A stretch of DNA of 64,000 bases from Candidatus Obscuribacteraceae bacterium (lineage in GTDB: Bacteria > Cyanobacteriota > Vampirovibrionia > Obscuribacterales > Obscuribacteraceae). The stretch lies in assembly GCA_044229845.1 (NCBI GenBank), contig JBGASG010000001.1, positions 864,001 through 928,000 on the forward strand, written 5' to 3'. The notes below the pieces were generated by a model. It saw only the letters and a program-made list of their open reading frames with translations. It did no database searches and was not told the DNA's origin. Shown here one piece after another: positions 40,560 through 50,695 of the stretch. Positions within the stretch are counted from its first letter, which is position 1. Every line of letters starts with the position of its first letter. The position numbers were made by a program, and so were the translations under genes.

Positions 40560-40646
40560 ACTCCGGCAGACGAGAAATTGTTCACAACCTCGCGTCATTT
40601 TCGCATTTCGTCTTAATATGTGCACGATCAACCCAGGCATACAACT

Positions 40647-41579
40647 ATGTCGTTTTCGAAATTGCGCTTCTACCTGTTGCTGGCAGCACTGCTCGTGTCC
40701 ACCCTCGGACCGGTGCGCGCAGCGTCGGAAAAAACTGAGGCAGCCGCGCCGGCAGCCGCTTCTGTCGATCGCCCGGTCACCGATAAGTGGGCATTGCTGA
40801 TTGGAGTTAGCGAGTTTCCCACAGTCGATTTGCTCGGCGCTCACATCGAGAAAGGTGCGTCCACTACTCCTCGCCTGGTCCTCCCGGCTCGCGCCGACTC
40901 GCTCACATTCAGCGTTAAAGATGCCGTCGACGTGCGCAATTTCCTGATTTACAAAGCCGGGTTTGCCCCCAGCCACGTGAAAGTCTTGTTGAACTCCCAA
41001 GCCACTGGCGAAAAAATTCGTTATTACCTGGGTTCGGGCTGGCTGAAGAATGTTGTTCGCCCGGACGACCTGGTGGTTGTGTATTTCTCCAGCCACGGCA
41101 GCACGTCATTCTCGGACAAGAACGGCGAAAATTACATTCTCACCTACGACTTCGACGATCGAAATCCGAAGAGCACGGGATTGAGCATGCAAGAGCTGGG
41201 TCGCATGATCAAACAATCGCTCCCCTCAGATCGAGTCGTCATCATCGTTGATACCTGTTTTTCCGGCAACGTCAAAACCAGAGACGCCGCAGCGACCACC
41301 GACGTCATCGGTGCCGGACAGATTGCTGTCACCGCCTGCTCTGCCAATGAAACATCTGTAGATGACGATTTTAACGAGAGCGGGCTTTTCACTCACTATC
41401 TTTTGGAAAACCTGTCCAAATACGACGGAAAACTCAAGACTGCTTTTGAAGAAACACGCCAGCAGGTGATTATGGCAGCCAGGCTGCGCATGCACGAACA
41501 GCATCCCACGGTGAACTACAGCCGGTGGAGCGGCAGCGATGCCGTGCTTTTTGCAAAACCTTCAGACCCATCGCCCTAA
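40647..41579 (+). CDS. Caspase-family (peptidase C14) protein, signal peptide
   Basis: KWALLIGV, DA, YFSSHG (His), VDTCFSG (Cys), GLFTHYL, QHP. Confidence 0.88.
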   Translation: MSFSKLRFYLLLAALLVSTLGPVRAASEKTEAAAPAAASVDRPVTDKWALLIGVSEFPTVDLLGAHIEKGASTTPRLVLPARADSLTFSVKDAVDVRNFLIYKAGFAPSHVKVLLNSQATGEKIRYYLGSGWLKNVVRPDDLVVVYFSSHGSTSFSDKNGENYILTYDFDDRNPKSTGLSMQELGRMIKQSLPSDRVVIIVDTCFSGNVKTRDAAATTDVIGAGQIAVTACSANETSVDDDFNESGLFTHYLLENLSKYDGKLKTAFEETRQQVIMAARLRMHEQHPTVNYSRWSGSDAVLFAKPSDPSP

Positions 41580-41618
41580 GTCAGTCAACGCCATCCAACA
41601 GGATGAAGGAATCGAGCA

Positions 41619-43736
41619 ATGAAACGACATCTGATCTCTCCAGTGGTGGCACTTTGCGTGATGCTGGTGGCGGTACTCGGACCGATTCGTATGGCTGCCG
41701 CAGCTGACGCTCCCCAGCAGCCGGGCAATCAAAACAAGTTTGCCCTTTTGATTGGCATTGATGACTACATCTCCAAACGCCTGGAAAAGCTGGATGGTTG
41801 TGAAAACGATGCGAAGGACATGCGCAAGCTTCTCACGACACGCTTCGGGTTTCCTGATGACGACAAACATATAAAAGTCTTGCTCTCGCGCCAGGCAACC
41901 AGACAAGCCATCGTTGATGCGTTCAAGGCTCAATTGATTGAGAATGCCAAAGCAAATCCGAATGCCATCTGTGTGTTTCATTACAGCGGGCATGGCTCTC
42001 AGGTGCCCGACATGAACGGCGATGAGGAGGACGGTATGGATGAAACTCTCGTGCCGGTAGATTCTCGCCAGCCCGATCACTACGACCTTACCGACGACGA
42101 TCTGGAAGACCTGATCAACCAGCTCGGTCAATATACGAAAAACATCACCATAATCACTGATTGCTGCCACTCCGGCTCCAATGTTCGAGACGCGACCGTG
42201 AGTGTGAGACTGCGCAAGGCCGAGACTGATGACAGACCGCAACCTCCACAAAAACCAAAGGACGCCAAAAGCGCTCCACCGGCTACTTATGTGTCAATGG
42301 CGGGATGCTTGCCCAACGAGACTGCCGGCGAGTCCGACACCGATACTCCGCAGGGTGACCGTGCCAATGGACTTCTGACAAGAAACTTGATTGATGCGCT
42401 TGAGCAGGCAAACGCCGGTACTACATATCGCGACTTGTGGGGAGCGGTGGCAACGGGAGTGACGGGCAACCGTTCCAATCAGCATCCGCAAATCGAAGGC
42501 GACATCGACCGTTTCATATTCGGCGATGCAACCGATCGAGCCGATCCGTACATTCCAGTTTCGGAAGTCACCGACAAGAGCATCACCATTGCCGCCGGTT
42601 CTCTGCAGGGGATCGATCCAGGCACGCTGGTGGCGTTCTATAAAAAGGAAGCAACTCAGCTGCGCGGCAACAAAGATTTGTTGGGTGTCGCCAGCGCCAA
42701 AGATTGCAATGCACTCAGTGCCACCATCGAAAGACCGGCAGGCGTTGATCAGGAAGCGTTGAAGTCGGCCAAAGCCAAAATCGTCACGCCGCACTTCGGC
42801 GCCGGTCCGCTCAATGTGACAGCATTCAATGCCGTTCCTGGAGAAACGAACTCAGCCAGCTGGCAGCAGTTCACCAAGGGCCTGACTGATTCGGTCGACC
42901 CCAAACTGGTCAAAATTGCCAGCAAAACCGCTGATCCGTTTAAAACGCGCGACGCCGGTGGCTGGGACATGTCTGTCGTAAAGGACACATACAACAACTT
43001 CCAGCAGGAGAAAAGTACCGCCGGCACTCGTGACGCCAAAGGCAACGGTTACTTCATTGCCACTAAGGATGGTGCGCCGCTCTTTGATGTCTGGGTGGAT
43101 GAAAACGATCCACACGCTGCCGACACCATAGCCAGCGCTCTGGAAAAGGGAGCTCGACAGCAGCGCGTGTTGGCTCTCGATAATCAAGTCTCGCCTCTCA
43201 AGGGCGCTCTGAAGATCGAAGTGCTGAAAGTTACCCCACTTGGTAAAGACGAATGGGGCGAGCCGACCTTCAAAGAAGATCCCGTTCCAGGAAATCAACT
43301 TGTGCCCACCGTGCACGTGGGGGACAAGTTGCGACTCAAGTTGACCAACACCACGGACGAAAATATCTACATCGCTATTTTGGCAATTGAGACCAGCGGC
43401 AGCATCGCTGTGCTCTATCCGCCGGACAATGCCAAATATCCGCTGCCTCCTAAAGGTACTTTCCGGTGGCCGGCACAGAAGCGCTTGCTTAGCATCAAGC
43501 CGCCCCTGGGAGTGGAGACCCTCAAATTTATCGTCACAACCAAGCCGGCTGATTTCACCATACTCGGACAGTCTGGCGTCAGCCGTGCTGCTCCGTCCGG
43601 TCCCGGTACGGCGCTGGAAGAACTTTTCCGCCGCAGCGTCGGTGGTCACAACACCCGCGATCTGGGCGTCAGCGAGGAAGACAGCAACTCGCTTGACGAG
43701 TGGACCACGACGACTCTCAGGCTTGTCATTAGATAA
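41619..43736 (+). CDS. Caspase/metacaspase-like C14 protease with C-terminal DUF4384-like domain, signal peptide
   Basis: ALLIGID.Y, L.GC.ND, HYSGHGSQ, DG.DETLVP.D, DCCHSG, QHPQ.EG; C-terminal GD.L.L...N....YI.IL....G.I..LYP. Confidence 0.9.
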   Translation: MKRHLISPVVALCVMLVAVLGPIRMAAAADAPQQPGNQNKFALLIGIDDYISKRLEKLDGCENDAKDMRKLLTTRFGFPDDDKHIKVLLSRQATRQAIVDAFKAQLIENAKANPNAICVFHYSGHGSQVPDMNGDEEDGMDETLVPVDSRQPDHYDLTDDDLEDLINQLGQYTKNITIITDCCHSGSNVRDATVSVRLRKAETDDRPQPPQKPKDAKSAPPATYVSMAGCLPNETAGESDTDTPQGDRANGLLTRNLIDALEQANAGTTYRDLWGAVATGVTGNRSNQHPQIEGDIDRFIFGDATDRADPYIPVSEVTDKSITIAAGSLQGIDPGTLVAFYKKEATQLRGNKDLLGVASAKDCNALSATIERPAGVDQEALKSAKAKIVTPHFGAGPLNVTAFNAVPGETNSASWQQFTKGLTDSVDPKLVKIASKTADPFKTRDAGGWDMSVVKDTYNNFQQEKSTAGTRDAKGNGYFIATKDGAPLFDVWVDENDPHAADTIASALEKGARQQRVLALDNQVSPLKGALKIEVLKVTPLGKDEWGEPTFKEDPVPGNQLVPTVHVGDKLRLKLTNTTDENIYIAILAIETSGSIAVLYPPDNAKYPLPPKGTFRWPAQKRLLSIKPPLGVETLKFIVTTKPADFTILGQSGVSRAAPSGPGTALEELFRRSVGGHNTRDLGVSEEDSNSLDEWTTTTLRLVIR

Positions 43737-43852
43737 AGCCAAGGAATTTTTTGTAGAAACATATGGGCAAATCGTTATCTGCCGACGATAATCTGTTCTG
43801 GCCCGCCATAAGGGAAGTAGCCTTCCCTGAGTTATAGGAATTGGAGGACAGA

Positions 43853-44197
43853 ATGGAAAAATTGAACAAGACCGATTTGACGGTATTGCTCGCAGCGATC
43901 AGCGTCAGCTCTGGTGTTCTGGTCAGCTCAGGTCAACCGGCAGTAGCAGCCAAATCGACCGGAATGGCAATCGCTGAAAAGGGAACCAACCTGGCCGACA
44001 CCGATAAGAAAGACGACACCAAGAAAGAAGAAGCCAAGCCTGCCGGCAAGAAAAAAGGTCCTGGCAAAAACAGAGGCGGCGGTTGCACATATCCGTGCGG
44101 ATGCCACTACGGCAACGCCAAGAAGCATGGCAAGACCGACAAAGCCGGCGAATCCAAACCGGCCGAAGATGCCAAAAAGGAAGCTGAAACCAAGTAG
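43853..44197 (+). CDS. Putative RiPP precursor for the downstream DUF692 enzyme
   Basis: GGAGG RBS; signal peptide ending PAVA; Lys/Asp/Glu-rich low complexity around the only Cys cluster GGGCTYPCGCHYG; first gene of the DUF692 operon. Confidence 0.75.
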   Translation: MEKLNKTDLTVLLAAISVSSGVLVSSGQPAVAAKSTGMAIAEKGTNLADTDKKDDTKKEEAKPAGKKKGPGKNRGGGCTYPCGCHYGNAKKHGKTDKAGESKPAEDAKKEAETK

Positions 44198-44212
44198 TCA
44201 GCCTCAGGTTCA

Positions 44213-45649
44213 ATGAGAAAATTTAGCCCTGCGTCCGTGCTAGCAACGTTGTGTCTGGTTGGTAGTTTATTTGCCAGCCAGCTCAAGTTGCCCGCAATGG
44301 GCGCAGGGTTTGATTCTCTAGTAGGCACCGCACTACCTGTCCAACACAATGGTGAACGAGCGGGAGCCCAGCAAGCGGCCCCAGCAGCGCCAGCGGCACA
44401 ACCAGCAGAAGGGCCGCTGAGCACCGTCGAAATCACTATCGGTCCTTTCGACCTGGCCAAAAAATATCGATCCATGGAAGGTCCGTATGTGCGCGAGCCG
44501 CTGCGCATCGCCGACCTGATTGCGTCGAAACAGATCCAAATTCCTGAAGCCCTTGTACAATTCGTCGAAGGTTGTTCAAAACCGGCACCTTCAATGTCCG
44601 GCAGTGCCAAAGGCGCGAAGTCCGATGTACCGGATGCTGGTGTGATCGGGCTCAACACAGCGCGCACAAAAGGCAGAGAGTTGCTCTGGCTGAAGTCGGT
44701 CAAGCTGGAAGTCCTGGACGAAAACGATCAGGTCTTACCCACGGACGAATTTTTCTGCCACTCGACCATTGATGTCGATCTGGATTTCCGCAGCCATGTG
44801 TTTCCTGAAAGTGAACAGCCAGGGAGCATGCGCCACATAGTTCTTTCGCAGGGGCAGACCGAGTTTTCCTTCCCGCGCGGATATGGACTGCCGGTTGCCA
44901 GCGACGAAACCTGGAGATTCATTTTTCAGGCAATCAATAGAGATAGCGACAAACACCGGCGAGTCAAGCAACGCTGTGTACTTTCATTCGTTCGCGATTC
45001 GGAATTGGTTTATCCGATCAAAGCTCTGTTCTGGTACTACCCGGTGATCAATGTGGTGATCGATCGCAATTCGCCGGAGGCGGCACAAGAAGAACACAAC
45101 ATGTGCCCGGACTGTTCGTTGATGTCTGATGGCGTGCCGGCTCCGAGCAGCATGCGCAGCATGATCTTCAATGATGAGCTGGGGCGCAAACAAATCGGCC
45201 ACTGGGTGGTGCCACCCGGTACTCACACTTACACAAGTCCCGTCAGCACCATCACATCCCCTGCTAATGCCGATTTCTCCGCGGTAAACAGACGTGTTCA
45301 TCTGGTCATGGCTCACGTGCATCCTTATTGTGAAAAATTTGCTCTGGTAGAGTGCAACGGTAAAGCACGCAAGGACGTGATCGTGGTCAAGGCGCGAACG
45401 CAGGAAAAGCCGCTGCAGATTTTGCACATCGACACGCTGAGTTCCAGCGAAGGTATTCCTCTGATAGCGGGCAAGCATTACGAGCTGGAAGCGACTTACG
45501 TCAATCCGACGGCGCAGCCGCAAGACTCGATGGCCGGCATGGCAATTTATTGCGCCGACACAAAATTTGTGCGACCTGACTGGTCGTACGCCGGTGACTC
45601 CAATCCCGCTGATTGTGGACTTCCCGTTAGCAAGCGCAAGGCGAAATAA
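44213..45649 (+). CDS. Secreted protein, PHM/type II copper monooxygenase-like (tentative)
   Basis: Signal peptide; EFFCH, FP.GYG, HWVVPPG, AHVHP (HxH), YELEATY.NP...DSM (Met ligand spacing resembles the CuM site). Confidence 0.55.
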   Translation: MRKFSPASVLATLCLVGSLFASQLKLPAMGAGFDSLVGTALPVQHNGERAGAQQAAPAAPAAQPAEGPLSTVEITIGPFDLAKKYRSMEGPYVREPLRIADLIASKQIQIPEALVQFVEGCSKPAPSMSGSAKGAKSDVPDAGVIGLNTARTKGRELLWLKSVKLEVLDENDQVLPTDEFFCHSTIDVDLDFRSHVFPESEQPGSMRHIVLSQGQTEFSFPRGYGLPVASDETWRFIFQAINRDSDKHRRVKQRCVLSFVRDSELVYPIKALFWYYPVINVVIDRNSPEAAQEEHNMCPDCSLMSDGVPAPSSMRSMIFNDELGRKQIGHWVVPPGTHTYTSPVSTITSPANADFSAVNRRVHLVMAHVHPYCEKFALVECNGKARKDVIVVKARTQEKPLQILHIDTLSSSEGIPLIAGKHYELEATYVNPTAQPQDSMAGMAIYCADTKFVRPDWSYAGDSNPADCGLPVSKRKAK

Positions 45650-46557
45650 TGACGTCTAAGTTTCTCGATGTGAAAAAGCAATTGCCGATACTGGGTGTCG
45701 GCCTGGGGCTGCGCAACGAAGTGGAAGACGAAACCTTCGAGCACGCCGACCAGATCGACTGGCTGGAAATAATCTCCGAGCAATTCATGGGACTGGGCGG
45801 AAAATCGCGAGCCCGCTTGGACAGGGCTTTAAATGTATTCCCTCTAATCGCGCACGGGGTCGGACTGTCTCTCGGGAGCACCGACGAAATAGACCAGGAC
45901 TACATCCGGTCTTTGAAGAAACTCCTGAAGCATATCGATGCTCCTTGGTGGAGCGATCATCTTTGTTTCAGTGCCTTTGGCGGTGTGCAAACCCACGAGT
46001 TGCTGCCGCTGCCGTTCTCACGCGAGGCAGTTGCGCATTGCGTAACACGCGCGAAGAAAGTCCAGGAGATGACGGACATTCCGTTTCTTCTCGAAAACAT
46101 CACGTACTACATGCGCATGCCCGGCAGTGAGCTGGATGAAGCTCAGTTTCTTTCTGAAGTGTTGGAGCAAGCCGATTGCGGGCTTCTGCTCGATATCAAC
46201 AATGTGTATGTCAATTCGCTCAATCACAAATTCGATCCTTTCGAATTTATGGATCAGATTCCGCTTGAGCGCACCGTACAAATTCACATAGCCGGTCACC
46301 ACCATGCTCCCGAATTCGATGCCTATGTGGATACGCATGGTGCCACACCTCCAAGACCGGTTCTGGATCTGCTTAAGTATGTGATGGAACGGGTTCCAGT
46401 CAACGCGATTCTCCTCGAGCGCGATCAGCATTTTCCCGATGAGTTTTCTGAGTTACTGGCAGAGCTGGACGATATTCGAGCTGTAGTCAAAGCAGCACAA
46501 CCAGGCTGGCTCGACAGCAAGTCTCAGGCGAAGACGTCGCACCAGGTGCGCGGATAA
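45649..46557 (+). CDS. DUF692 multinuclear non-heme iron oxidative enzyme (MNIO)
   Basis: GVGLGLR, WLEI..E, HGVGLSLG, WSDHL, LLPLP, LLEN, LLLDINN.YVN..NH, HIAGH, DTHG, LLERD. Confidence 0.95.
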   Translation: MTSKFLDVKKQLPILGVGLGLRNEVEDETFEHADQIDWLEIISEQFMGLGGKSRARLDRALNVFPLIAHGVGLSLGSTDEIDQDYIRSLKKLLKHIDAPWWSDHLCFSAFGGVQTHELLPLPFSREAVAHCVTRAKKVQEMTDIPFLLENITYYMRMPGSELDEAQFLSEVLEQADCGLLLDINNVYVNSLNHKFDPFEFMDQIPLERTVQIHIAGHHHAPEFDAYVDTHGATPPRPVLDLLKYVMERVPVNAILLERDQHFPDEFSELLAELDDIRAVVKAAQPGWLDSKSQAKTSHQVRG

Positions 46558-46561
46558 GACT

Positions 46562-47404
46562 ATGCCTGGTAGCACGCTCTCCGAAGTCGAAAAGGCAATG
46601 ACCAAGTTGTGGACGAATCGCGACGCATTGGAGCGATTTCTGGCAGGCGACTTCTCAGACATTGGTCCCGAGATCGCCGCTCAAATCGATAAAGAGCGGC
46701 TGATGATCTACGTTCAAGTTTTGCAAGTCAAACACTACGAAACGATGAGCATGACTTTTCCTCTGACGGAAAAACTGTTAGGAGAAGACTGGGACGAGAT
46801 CGTTGAAGACTATCGCAACATCTGCCCGCCGACCAGCTACAGGTCCAGTCGCGCCGGCGAACACTTCAAGACATTCATCGAAAAACATTTGAACGAGCAG
46901 GTGAAGGAAAAGTTTCCTTACTTGACGGACCTTGTCGATTACGAGTTTTCCGAAAGCGACATGATTGATTTCGATGATACGGAATTCGATTATCAATCCG
47001 ATACGTGCCTGCTGCAATCGGCTGAGGAATTCGCGGGATTCAAACCTCTGGTCAACCCGGCTCTGCTTATTCGGCGGTATCACTTCGATCTCATCGCCAT
47101 CGCCGAAAAGCTGGAAGAAGAGTCGGATGAGTTGCCGGCAGACGTGAAGGCGGAGCCGAGTATTGTCCTTGTTTATCGAGATCCTGAGGACAAAGAGATT
47201 CGATTCTTGTCCGTGGGACATGTGGCGGCGGCGATCATTGAGAAAGCTCAGGAAGGAAACAGCTCCTACGGCGATCTCGCAGGACTTGCGGTCGCGCTCA
47301 ATCCGGATCAAGATCCGCAAACGACATTGGCCGATTTTATGGGACTAGTAGAGTCCCTGCAGGGCAAGCACGTTTTTATTGGACATCGCAGAATTTCCGG
47401 CTAA
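46562..47404 (+). CDS. DUF2063-type MNIO partner protein
   Basis: RL.IY, FP....LLG..W, PP.S, F..F, PYL.DL..YE, L.YR; directly downstream of DUF692. Confidence 0.85.
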   Translation: MPGSTLSEVEKAMTKLWTNRDALERFLAGDFSDIGPEIAAQIDKERLMIYVQVLQVKHYETMSMTFPLTEKLLGEDWDEIVEDYRNICPPTSYRSSRAGEHFKTFIEKHLNEQVKEKFPYLTDLVDYEFSESDMIDFDDTEFDYQSDTCLLQSAEEFAGFKPLVNPALLIRRYHFDLIAIAEKLEEESDELPADVKAEPSIVLVYRDPEDKEIRFLSVGHVAAAIIEKAQEGNSSYGDLAGLAVALNPDQDPQTTLADFMGLVESLQGKHVFIGHRRISG

Positions 47405-50400
47405 CTACCAGCCCACGCCGTCGTAGACCCAACCCGCCCAGTAGTAGGGATGCTTCCACTTGCCACCGGGGGTTGACTTCACCGACTCTTGCGCCGCCTT
47501 CAATGCGTCGACTGGTTTCATCGGTTTCGTGGGATTCCACAGATTTTGATAGAACGCCTTCATCAATTCTTTTGTGGCCTTGTCATCGACAGACCAGAGT
47601 GACATCAAGACTCCTCGCGTTCCGGCACCGATTAATGCGGCGCGCAGTCCCATCACTCCCTGCCCTTCGTAGTCTTTGCCGCGACCGGTGTTGCAGGCGG
47701 ACAAGACAACGAGATTGCAGTGGCTCAAGTCCTGGCCAACCAACTCCTCAGCGGTAAGCCGATCGTTGTTGCTGCCCGCGATGATGTTCAGGTAGTTGGA
47801 TTTGAATTGGCCACCGCCCAATTTTTGTGCGTCCGGTATTGGTGCCACCAGAAGACCGGACAAGACAAGTGGATTGCGCGAGGCGGCTGCAGCTCTCGTG
47901 TCGATGCCGCCCTGATCTTTGCCGGAGAACCTCACTGTGTCGCCAGGCAATGTCACCAGGGGCACCGTTTTGTCTCGGTCGTCTGCCGGATCGAAGAATC
48001 CGTGCGTGGCAAGGTGTGCATAAGTGGAACTGCTCAAGTGTTTGAGCACCTCATCCTTGGTCGGCTGAAGACCAGTCAACTTCGACACATGAAGCTTCAT
48101 TGGCTCTGCAAGCGCGGCGATTTCGTTGGCTTCGGATTCTGTACCCGGAAGGAAAAGTGCCTTTTGCGCAAACTCGATGCCGCCGATCACAAAGAGATCT
48201 TTTGCTTGAGGAGCTTTATAAGGTGCCCGCAATTGCAGCAGGGCGCGCGGACTGTCGATTTGACAGGTGCGTATGCGGCCGCCTTCGTTGTTATCTATGA
48301 GAACAGACCAGGGCAGGGTCGCAAGTTTTGAGTCGGGGCAAATCCACACTTTTGGAGCGCTTGCCGGGATTGCTGCTTTGATGGGCAACCAAAGTTTCTT
48401 GCCGACGGCATTTGCCAGCTCAGTGCAATTGACGCGGGGTGCATTGGCAGCGTTTGGCGAGTTTGGTTTCTCGTCGTCGTCGGTAATGGAGACATCGCGG
48501 GCGGTGCCAGAGTTCGAAGCCATGGCGTGAAGCCAATCGGTTGACACCTTATCTATGTCGTCGGCATCACCCAGTCGAAATCCCTTGACACCACCTGACT
48601 TAGAAACTGCAAACACGAAGTATGCCGACTTGTTGGTGAGCATATCTTTGTAGCGGAGCATGTCTACTACGACTTCATCGCTGCTCAATGAGCTGGCGAA
48701 CTCGCGAGCTGTTTTGGTGAGCGTTGGATCGATCTCGCCGGTCGCAGTATTTTTGAGGGCGAGTTTGCGTTCGAGCATTTCTTTAATTTCTGTCCGGGTC
48801 TGAATGCCGATCAGATCGGATTGTTGACCGGCACCACCGGCGGAGAGTTTTGAAAGCTCTTGCCTGATGTTTCTGAGGGCGGCGACGGTGTTCGGGTCGC
48901 CGCTGCGTTCCAGGTTGGCCTGTTGTCTGACAGCGTTGATCAAAAGACCCTGCCAGCGCATAACATATTCAAATCGCTTGTCGGCTGACTCAGTTGCCGA
49001 GCCGTATGATAGGAGCGCGTTGATCTGATCGCCTACGCACTTGATAAACGCGCACTGACCTGCAAATGAGAGCTTCGGAAACCCGGACTTTACAAACTCG
49101 TCCAGCTTCTCGCAGGCGGCCAAAACATTTTTATTCGCAACTGCTTGGGCACCAAGTTTGCTGTTAGCGAATGCAATGCCATTGTAGTCCGCCACCAGCC
49201 CAAGAACACCAGCGCTCGACGTGTCTTTGAGATGCAGTTTCAATGCCTGGTTATACTCGGTGTCCGCAAGTTTGTAGTCTTGCTTGGAAAGGGCAAGCCC
49301 GGCAAGCAGCAAGTGCGCCTTTGCTAGTTCGGACTGATCAGTGTAGTTGGGTTGGATGATGCTGGAGAGAATGGTCACCGCTTTTTGCGCGACCGATGCC
49401 GCCTCAGCGGCGTTGTTCGACAAGCTGAGAACTTGTGCTAGTTCCAGTTGATGACTAGCTACCTGACTGTTGCTCAATCGCAGGTTCGATTTCCCACACA
49501 GCTGCCGCGCATAGTTTTCTGCTGCTGCCAGATCGCCTTTGGATCGGGCGACCGACGTGAGGATCTCCAGGCAATTCATGCCGAGCATGTTGTCCTGATA
49601 ATAGGTCGGCCCCCAAAGTTTCTTGCAGAGATCTTCTGCTTCTCTGGCTCTCGACCAAGCTACATCATAGTCACCTTCCAGGCGACACACTCTGGCTCGG
49701 GCAATCAGTGTTCGCACTCTGTTGTCTTGCGGCTGGTTGTGGTTTGCGTACCAAATTTGAGACGCCGCGAAGGTAGCTTCAGCCTTTGCATAGTCTCCGA
49801 GATTTTCAAACAACAGTCCCAATCCGTACTTTTCGCGACCGTTAACAGGCGATACGGATAAGTCACCGTTGGGAGCAAGAGCGCTGAAATTGGCAAGAGC
49901 CAGATTTGCCAGTTCTACCCCCTTCTGCCGCGTTCTCTCATCGCCGGACAAGAGGTAAGCCAGGCGCACCAACGATGCTTGAACGGCTGGTGTCTTGAGG
50001 CGAGCATCTTTTGCATCGCTCAACTTCTTCCAGATTGCATACCCTTCCAGCGCGGGCGGAACATAGTCACCACCCAGCGCCGCCAGTCGATGTGCGATCA
50101 AAAACTTTTCCTGAGCGACGGACGGGCTATCGTTGCCTTCCAGCTTCTGTCTGATCTGCATCGCCTGAACAATGATTGGAATCACCGGCTGCGTCTTGTT
50201 TTTGAAGTATGGATACGCAATTGCAACATCGTCCAGAAACTGGGCGTACTGGACCGAGTTCGGATCCATTTTTGAGCCGTTGTCGGACATTACTTTGCTG
50301 AGATCGGGTGCGATACCAAAAGCTTTTTCGTGAGTTTCGCGTGCGGCGGCGTTCTGAGCTTCTAAAGCAATGTCGATGAAAATGTTTTTGCGAATTAGTG

Positions 50401-50647
50401 CATCGTTGTCTCTGTACTGATTGTAGAGGGGCTCCGCCTCTGTCGGGCGACCCTCCGCGACAAGTATGCCAGCCAAGTCTCGATTGGCTTTCGCCAGCTG
50501 CGCCTCAGGAGCCTTATTTTTAGTGAGCTGCTCAATTTGCGCACGGGCAGCCTTTTCGGCGTCCTGCAGTTTCTTGTTGGTTTCCTGGGCATCCACCTGG
50601 CAGGCACAGGAAAGTGCCGCCGCTACGAGAAGTACCAGTCTCTTCAT
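47405..50647 (-). CDS. TPR-CHAT protease, signal peptide
   Basis: ICPDS.L..LPW, LPGT..E, HLATHGF (His), LVVLSAC.TG (Cys), SLW.V.D, AL..AQ, HPYYWAG. Confidence 0.92.
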   Translation of the reverse strand: MKRLVLLVAAALSCACQVDAQETNKKLQDAEKAARAQIEQLTKNKAPEAQLAKANRDLAGILVAEGRPTEAEPLYNQYRDNDALIRKNIFIDIALEAQNAAARETHEKAFGIAPDLSKVMSDNGSKMDPNSVQYAQFLDDVAIAYPYFKNKTQPVIPIIVQAMQIRQKLEGNDSPSVAQEKFLIAHRLAALGGDYVPPALEGYAIWKKLSDAKDARLKTPAVQASLVRLAYLLSGDERTRQKGVELANLALANFSALAPNGDLSVSPVNGREKYGLGLLFENLGDYAKAEATFAASQIWYANHNQPQDNRVRTLIARARVCRLEGDYDVAWSRAREAEDLCKKLWGPTYYQDNMLGMNCLEILTSVARSKGDLAAAENYARQLCGKSNLRLSNSQVASHQLELAQVLSLSNNAAEAASVAQKAVTILSSIIQPNYTDQSELAKAHLLLAGLALSKQDYKLADTEYNQALKLHLKDTSSAGVLGLVADYNGIAFANSKLGAQAVANKNVLAACEKLDEFVKSGFPKLSFAGQCAFIKCVGDQINALLSYGSATESADKRFEYVMRWQGLLINAVRQQANLERSGDPNTVAALRNIRQELSKLSAGGAGQQSDLIGIQTRTEIKEMLERKLALKNTATGEIDPTLTKTAREFASSLSSDEVVVDMLRYKDMLTNKSAYFVFAVSKSGGVKGFRLGDADDIDKVSTDWLHAMASNSGTARDVSITDDDEKPNSPNAANAPRVNCTELANAVGKKLWLPIKAAIPASAPKVWICPDSKLATLPWSVLIDNNEGGRIRTCQIDSPRALLQLRAPYKAPQAKDLFVIGGIEFAQKALFLPGTESEANEIAALAEPMKLHVSKLTGLQPTKDEVLKHLSSSTYAHLATHGFFDPADDRDKTVPLVTLPGDTVRFSGKDQGGIDTRAAAASRNPLVLSGLLVAPIPDAQKLGGGQFKSNYLNIIAGSNNDRLTAEELVGQDLSHCNLVVLSACNTGRGKDYEGQGVMGLRAALIGAGTRGVLMSLWSVDDKATKELMKAFYQNLWNPTKPMKPVDALKAAQESVKSTPGGKWKHPYYWAGWVYDGVGW

Positions 50648-50695
50648 ATCTCGCTGTTCCTCCACACTGCCAAAGACCAAGCGCTGTCAAGAAAC

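Follow-up and report, generated by a model that had tools for sequence, protein, structure and literature searches.

A four-gene operon read from the + strand at 43853-47404 of a 64-kb stretch of DNA from a Candidatus Obscuribacteraceae bacterium, an uncultured relative of the cyanobacteria that does not photosynthesize (contig JBGASG010000001.1, positions 864,001 to 928,000; the whole stretch is called the window here) was found to encode a short cysteine-containing precursor, a 478-aa secreted protein named X478 in this report, an MNIO (DUF692) enzyme and a DUF2063 partner. We interpret this operon as a new and rare form of the bufferin/captophorin pathway for peptides that are made on the ribosome and modified after translation (RiPPs). 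A precursor with a putative Sec-type signal would be processed in the cytoplasm by a predicted thiooxazole-forming MNIO-DUF2063 pair, and X478, which has the fold of peptidylglycine alpha-hydroxylating monooxygenase (PHM) and dopamine beta-hydroxylase (DBH), would likely act as a secreted copper oxidase on the exported peptide. This is our leading interpretation, and we place its probability just short of even.

The linkage of the three specific components supports this interpretation. Among 104 genomes of the window's own family (Obscuribacteraceae), MNIO genes are present in 99 and relatives of X478 in 27, and matches of at least 60% identity to X478 were found in four: the window's genome (G000) and G237, which belong to one genus, and G178 and G240, which belong to a second (g11). 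Each of these X478 genes adjoins an MNIO gene. The back-translated core sequence YPCGCHYG gave one match in each of the same four genomes, and its reversed control gave 0. As the core, the X478 ortholog and the adjacent MNIO co-occur in the same 4 of 104 genomes, the operon arrangement is not a product of chance. The order of the genes is precursor-X478-MNIO-DUF2063 in the genus of the window, with MNIO and DUF2063 as separate genes, and precursor, fused MNIO::DUF2063 and X478 in g11, where the start of X478 overlaps the preceding stop; overlapping stop and start codons occur in both orders. In a tree of 28 MNIOs, picked from >200 matches as most of the top-scoring ones plus a sample of lower ones, the four X478-linked MNIOs group together as a single clade (ultrafast bootstrap 100, SH-aLRT 98). 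The 12 closest X478 proteins are likewise monophyletic (SH-aLRT 100), and the four of known context fall on both of their main branches. MNIO operons found elsewhere in the family, one of them in the window's own genome, encode EGSCKGK-repeat or CGKGSCG/EGACKGK precursors and are devoid of X478. The distinct subclass proposed in the earlier note, which was made from the sequence of the window alone, therefore stands as a co-inherited set defined by the same four genomes, one MNIO clade and one X478 clade.

The product of the third gene is a full-length MNIO, matching PF05114 (MbnB_TglH_ChrH) over profile positions 1-262 of 263 (E 9.5e-92; 307.4 bits, cut-off 25), with BufB (NF050167; 270.8 against 310 bits) and HvfB (NF003818; 260.8 against 360 bits) as top NCBIfam matches, both below the equivalog cut-offs. 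The fourth gene matches PF09836 (E 3.8e-9; 37.1 bits, cut-off 27.2) and PF22106 (E 1.8e-7; 31.9 bits, cut-off 27), and its score against the NCBIfam HvfC model is 67.6 bits, under the cut-off of 142. These matches agree with the DUF692 and DUF2063 identities assigned in the earlier note, and the open reading frame (ORF) analysis of the window reproduced the tight + strand operon that it had described: 15 nt lie between precursor and X478 genes, X478 and MNIO genes overlap by one base (TAATG), and 4 nt separate the MNIO gene from the DUF2063 (PME1) gene, the adjacency by which captophorins/bufferins are recognized.

The precursor consists of a putative Sec-type signal (about residues 1-33, ending in AVA followed by AK), a Lys/Glu-rich spacer, a single core and a Lys-rich tail. 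Read by eye, its N-terminus and that of X478 both show 1-2 basic residues, a hydrophobic stretch and an AxA-like site. The core has its cysteines arranged as C78-TYP-C82-G-C84-H85, that is, the CxxxCxCH pattern already noticed in the first reading of the DNA. The precursor has homologs of 48-49% identity, with an invariant core, in G178 and G240, and G77, C78 and Y80-G87 are unchanged throughout the 3-sequence precursor alignment (A4); the invariant Tyr, Pro, His and Gly of these linked precursors fit a co-evolved substrate. None of the core cysteines is flanked by Lys, and their spacing is CxxxC/CxC. Even at E 10, no family of Pfam or NCBIfam matched the precursor, which in this respect lies outside the described groups (DUF2282, BUF_6/12Cys, EGKCG/Lys-Cys, Cys-Lys, CxxxxC), with BUF_6/12Cys, EGKCG and CxxxxC being set apart by core pattern and not by their authors' profiles.

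For X478, no Pfam, NCBIfam or PDB sequence match was obtained; phmmer and a 33-sequence profile returned nothing better than E 1 from the PDB, all of it chance matches, and a PF03712 search of five genomes with X478 relatives did not retrieve those relatives. An AlphaFold2 model built on the 33-sequence alignment (pLDDT 84.1, pTM 0.81) shows two beta-sandwich domains preceded by a signal peptide and a disordered linker at residues 23-54, and Foldseek ranked PHM and human DBH at the top of its matches (E 1.2e-7, probability 1.00). Structural alignment by VIA-align gave Z 16.0 with PHM (6ala_A; 238 aligned, rmsd 3.5 Å), Z 15.9 with DBH (4zel_A; 263 aligned, rmsd 3.9 Å) and Z 7.4-8.2 with PNGase F-type chains. 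As a reference at the profile level, six bacterial Cu2 monooxygenases from genomes also holding X478 relatives were aligned (A3); five match both PF01082 and PF03712, and the sixth PF03712 alone. Comparison of the X478 family with A3 by hhalign gave a probability of 58% (E 9.9e-5) over the whole length and of 81% (E 1.2e-5) for the C-terminal domain. H368 and H370 fell on the invariant His-x-His of A3 in both runs, and M440 on its invariant Met in the whole-length run. In PHM, the M-site ligands are H242, H244 and M314, and those of the H site are H107, H108 and H172 (PMC12164859, in the part covered); 70 residues separate H244 from M314 in PHM, and the same number separates H370 from M440 in X478. 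In an alignment of 119 sequences (the window's X478 plus 118 of 137 listed cluster representatives, 19 being omitted, including those <330 aa), H368 and H370 are kept in 119 and M440 in 118; C182 is conserved in 117, H183 in 118, H330 in 116 and M88 in 114. On the evidence of these residues, the catalytic site of X478 is predicted to function in the manner of PHM-type copper proteins.

Two further elements of the X478 sequence deserve mention. Relative to PHM and DBH, X478 has an insertion of ~58 residues and an additional N-terminal strand pair bearing a near-invariant Y-R/K-S-M-x-G-P motif of YRSMEGP type (Y85-P91; 44465-44485), in which M88 is kept in 114, G90 in 115 and P91 in 116 of the 119 sequences; Met88 could be a metal ligand. 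The low-confidence tail contains a Cys-Gly pair (C468-G469; 45614-45619) that every member of the MNIO-linked subclade keeps and many relatives from Obscuribacterales share; it is present in 23 of the 119 sequences and absent or gapped elsewhere, and some myxobacterial members end a few residues beyond it.

Three steps are envisaged. MNIO and its DUF2063 partner would modify Cys78, Cys82 and/or Cys84 in the cytoplasm, giving predicted copper-binding thiooxazoles by analogy with bufferins, oxazolin and fontiphorin; Sec would then export the peptide, with removal of the signal peptide; and X478, exported separately, would bind copper at H368/H370/M440 and hydroxylate the core at one of its C-H bonds. 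The target may be Gly87, where PHM-like alpha-hydroxylation might lead to cleavage to a C-terminal amide, or the benzylic carbon of Tyr80 or Tyr86, where hydroxylation would be DBH-like. The electron-supplying site of X478 would differ from that of PHM. Because signal-like N-termini are seen in the precursor and X478 and are missing from MNIO and DUF2063, a cytoplasmic MNIO step followed by an extracytoplasmic copper step is the simplest reading of topology and linkage. A broader proposal, which we regard as tentative and on balance doubtful, is that X478 stands for a bacterial family of copper oxygenases, secreted and so far undescribed (His2Met kept; His3 replaced by Cys-His plus His330/Met88, reminiscent of blue copper), one branch of which was recruited into a bufferin-type operon in two Obscuribacteraceae genera. 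The operon would then be the first RiPP pathway in which a cytoplasmic iron enzyme and a post-Sec copper enzyme act on one peptide, and perhaps, at Gly87, a bacterial equivalent of the amidation of neuropeptides.

Several observations weigh against an oxidase acting on the peptide. The His3 (CuH) site of PHM is not kept in X478, where Cys182-His183 replace the expected His-His, and no conserved third CuH His was found in the N-domain, Leu/Ile standing there in a non-significant alignment (probability 0.3%); indeed, the N-domain profile alignment of X478 with PHM-type enzymes is not significant as a whole. With the CuH triad not kept, monooxygenase activity of X478 is not assured. When 33 members of the X478 family were compared with Pfam at E 10, only a fused cyclophilin domain was detected, and PF01082 or PF03712 in 0 of 33. 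Lacking the CuH site and the Pfam profile matches, X478 is not classed as a member of the Cu type II monooxygenase family. The "copper-monooxygenase-like" label given to the 478-aa protein in the earlier note thus holds for the fold (Z 16 with PHM/DBH) and the His2Met site but not for the His3 electron-transfer site, and X478 is not an ordinary PHM-family member. Moreover, PHM requires a free C-terminal Gly, and Gly87 of the precursor is internal. The genomic distribution also counts on this side. At 78 of 80 X478-relative loci (from species-representative genomes, with ≤6 kb of flank per side) the flanks were free of MNIO, so that the X478 family must have other substrates, and no small Cys-rich neighbour was seen to be conserved at the MNIO-less loci. 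The complete system was found in four genomes of two genera only, and these amount to about two independent lineages.

The size of the X478 family puts these numbers into context. A profile search of 1.84 billion representatives (50%-identity clusters) retrieved 1025 proteins at E ≤0.001, 760 at 1e-10 and 401 at 1e-30, and among the 120 of 173 matches listed in a word-based search many carry a C-terminal cyclophilin fusion. By record title, relatives belong to Obscuribacterales/Melainabacteria, Xenobia, Myxococcota, Gemmatimonadota, Acidobacteriota, Omnitrophota, Opitutales and others, and Verrucomicrobiota are also counted among the groups of the family. An MNIO, a DUF2063 gene and a precursor homolog were found near the X478 relative at 2 of the 80 loci, and the family, being overwhelmingly MNIO-unlinked, is not a RiPP enzyme as a family. 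The check proposed at the outset, co-conservation of the 478-aa gene with MNIO, thus fails family-wide but holds for the closest subclade (4 of 4 genomes). No partner gene common to the family was found across the 80 loci. Two-component genes were considered as such a partner and rejected: their clusters (c2 and c3) occur in 11 and 9 of the 80 loci and belong to generic OmpR/histidine-kinase families, with no heavy-metal equivalog above cut-off. At eight Gemmatimonadaceae loci (L047, L048, L051, L054, L055, L058, L061 and L065), two of which overlap on one contig, the X478 relative adjoins a divergently oriented protein of ~900 aa that contains Peptidase_M14 (zinc carboxypeptidase). This pairing recalls the carboxypeptidase trimming that precedes peptide amidation in animals.

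An alternative that we judge unlikely, but that must be taken seriously, is that the thiooxazole peptide carries or buffers copper in the periplasm and is dedicated to loading or protecting X478, the substrate of X478 lying elsewhere. Captophorins bind copper (PMC13097082, in the part covered), the copper-type site of X478 is conserved, and peptide and X478 both have apparent export signals; in addition, most X478 relatives occur without RiPP genes, so that the enzyme has substrates of its own, and in g11 an efflux gene of CusA/CzcA type immediately precedes the operon. However, the relatives at the 78 MNIO-less loci would need copper too, yet manage without a dedicated peptide, and the Tyr/Pro/His-rich core is unlike the repeat-type copper sponges of neighbouring operons and better fits a substrate. 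It is improbable that X478 is a periplasmic metal-stress protein which shares the promoter of a bufferin-like cassette and never touches the peptide. Such co-regulation would suit the stress induction and frequent accessory genes of bufferin clusters (PMC12452194, in the sections covered), as well as the CusA/CzcA-type transporter and response regulator near the g11 operon, but it leaves unexplained the three-way co-occurrence of a specific precursor core, an MNIO clade and an X478 clade, and an adjacency that persists, with overlapping stop and start codons, through a change of order and a gene fusion. Finally, a non-redox role on the same double beta-sandwich fold, for example in binding or in hydrolysis of the PNGase F kind, is very improbable, since PHM/DBH score ~8 Z units above the PNGase F-type chains (Z 7.4-8.2) and the near-invariant His-x-His and Met align with the CuM ligands, even though sequence-level PHM/DBH matches are absent and the N-domain profile alignment is non-significant.

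The operon departs from the known systems in several respects. MNIO-DUF2063 pairs acting on Cys precursors with Sec signals constitute the largest MNIO group (PMC12452194), and all characterized cases involve 5-thiooxazoles and copper binding, for which the class name captophorins has been proposed (PMC13097082); both sources are represented here by parts of their text. With these systems (BufABC, HvfABC oxazolin, FonABC fontiphorin) the window's operon shares the MNIO Pfam family, the DUF2063/NGO1945_C partner, BufB/HvfB as top matches, and, as the first gene, a short Cys precursor, here with a signal-like N-terminus. In contrast, its precursor belongs to none of the described groups, a DoxX gene is absent, the MNIO and HvfC-type scores remain under the equivalog cut-offs, and X478, standing between precursor and MNIO, breaks the "strictly conserved bufABC order" (PMC12452194). 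According to the covered sections of that survey, the precursor was taken as the ORF immediately before MNIO and was required to have <200 aa; with X478 occupying that position, such a search logic would miss the window's operon. The supplementary tables of the survey, as far as covered, contain 0 occurrences of Obscuribacter, Melainabacteria, SZAS, Cu2_monoox and Pro_isomerase. Within the portions of the literature searched, including PMC12452194, PMC13097082 and PMC12164859, an MNIO-DUF2063 operon with a secreted PHM-fold protein is undescribed, in line with the earlier note, whose author had not recognized the combination from described clusters.

X478 itself resembles PHM and DBH (PF01082 plus PF03712) in its two beta-sandwich domains, in the His-x-His and Met 70 residues apart and in its predicted extracytoplasmic location. 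It differs from them in having no Pfam match and Cys182-His183 for the CuH triad, in being bacterial, and in that the X478 subclade is encoded within a RiPP operon. Plant BURP-domain cyclases, which make burpitides, are copper enzymes with PHM-like His2Met chemistry that tailor a ribosomal peptide at aromatic side chains (PMC12164859, in the part covered), and by analogy they set a precedent for the maturation of RiPPs at a PHM-type copper site. They are regarded as belonging to another fold family, come from another kingdom and are often fused to their own core peptides.

The features of the operon are collected in Table 1. A strong Shine-Dalgarno sequence (GGAGGA) lies five bases 5' of the precursor ATG, and an alternative TTG start is found at 43841. 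A stem-loop after the precursor stop was considered as an attenuator; the terminator scan had flagged the minus strand, and as the + strand region folds no better than shuffles (z -0.38) the idea was rejected.

Table 1. Coordinates of the operon and associated elements in the 64-kb window.
Feature	Position	Strand	Description
Promoter-like site	43764-43792	+	TGGGCA, 17 nt spacer, GATAAT; 9/12 consensus matches, 5' of precursor gene
Precursor gene	43853-44197	+	114 aa counted from ATG
Core motif GCTYPCGCHYG	44081-44113	+	G77-x-C-x-Y-P-C-G-C-H-Y-G87; three Cys, presumed MNIO targets
X478 gene	44213-45649	+	478 aa, signal-like N-terminus
MNIO (DUF692) gene	45649-46557	+	302 aa, without signal peptide
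DUF2063/NGO1945-type partner gene (PME1 type)	46562-47404	+	280 aa, without signal peptide

The operon stretch was found in sludge and bioreactor metagenomes and, in part, in six metatranscriptome runs. Four of the metatranscriptome runs, from three studies, were mapped onto the window with assembled contigs retrieved by searching with the operon stretch itself. Contigs covered the precursor gene in 4 of 4 of these runs (3 studies), and two contigs from two studies, X15 (43810-44414) and X18 (43818-44247), spanned the precursor/X478 junction with >31 letters on each side; a 19-kb control stretch gave just scattered short contigs elsewhere in the same runs. Because the contigs were assembled and found with the operon as query, they indicate presence in RNA libraries and not the level of expression or the ends of transcripts. 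In three runs of two studies contigs begin at 43818-43821, which hints weakly at a 5' end lying downstream of the promoter-like site, and contig depth, which is lower 3' of the precursor with parts of the operon uncovered, was not used as evidence. Two scans of metagenomes were negative: of 130 stretches matching the protein pattern, none encoded a relative, and the 8 DNA matches to YPCGCHYG lay in stop-broken frames or lacked flanking relatives, with an MNIO or X478 nearby in 0 of 8.

The neighbours of the operon are unrelated to it. The flanks (40620-43736 and 47405-50680) encode two caspase-domain (Peptidase_C14) proteins upstream, one with DUF4384, and a convergent TPR-CHAT protein of 1091 aa downstream (Pfam). 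Caspase-domain genes are also found near X478 paralogs in 6 of the 80 loci, which may merely reflect their abundance in such genomes. In g11 the operon lies directly downstream of a heavy-metal efflux gene of the CusA/CzcA family (TIGR00914, 518 bits, truncated ORF; L002:51-3327, L081:3-2653), and an OmpR-type response regulator and a fasciclin-domain gene are also present in the neighbourhood; none of the three occurs in the 64-kb window. Another g11 genome, G239, contains a 43-residue fragment (contig C159; L087:3044-3172) that shares 72% identity with the C-terminal end of the X478 ortholog of G178; neither an MNIO nor a precursor gene lies close to it, and it looks like what is left of a lost operon. 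In G100, an X478 paralog of 43% identity located 7 kb from an MNIO operon on the opposite strand was treated as a coincidence.

Other MNIO operons of the family show a variety of architectures. The window's genome has four MNIO genes, including ones on contigs C12, C14 and C3. The gene at C12:6839-7705 is preceded by that of a 137-aa precursor (L090:4746-5159) with about a dozen EGSCKGK repeats, an oxazolin/fontiphorin-like type in which Ser-Cys-Lys replaces Lys-Cys-Gly. Tandem pairs of differing precursors were observed in several Obscuribacteraceae operons (L083:6894-7666, L084:2865-3615, L085:5851-6661, L088:2828-3589); one member of the pair has CGKGSCG as its only core and matches HvfA weakly (E 8e-4), and the other has a EGACKGKDASCK core. 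The MNIO::DUF2063 fusion of the second genus is an ORF of 617 or 608 aa (L081:3475-5328 in G178; L002:4076-5902 in G240), with both halves confirmed by Pfam; open frames of 590-860 aa also contain many of the family's other MNIO matches, so that fusion of an MNIO with its partner seems to be common in Obscuribacteraceae.

Few kinds of RiPP cluster are known in larger numbers than those of bufferins/captophorins, yet the published surveys, in the parts covered here, show almost no tailoring past the MNIO step, and they depend on the gene order precursor-MNIO-partner. If the proposed reading is true, a secreted copper enzyme would add a second, extracytoplasmic maturation step and, as a new chemical handle, hydroxylation, amidation or cross-linking beside thiooxazoles. 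For the large, unannotated X478 family with its PHM fold, the operon provides a first functional handle in the form of a likely natural substrate.

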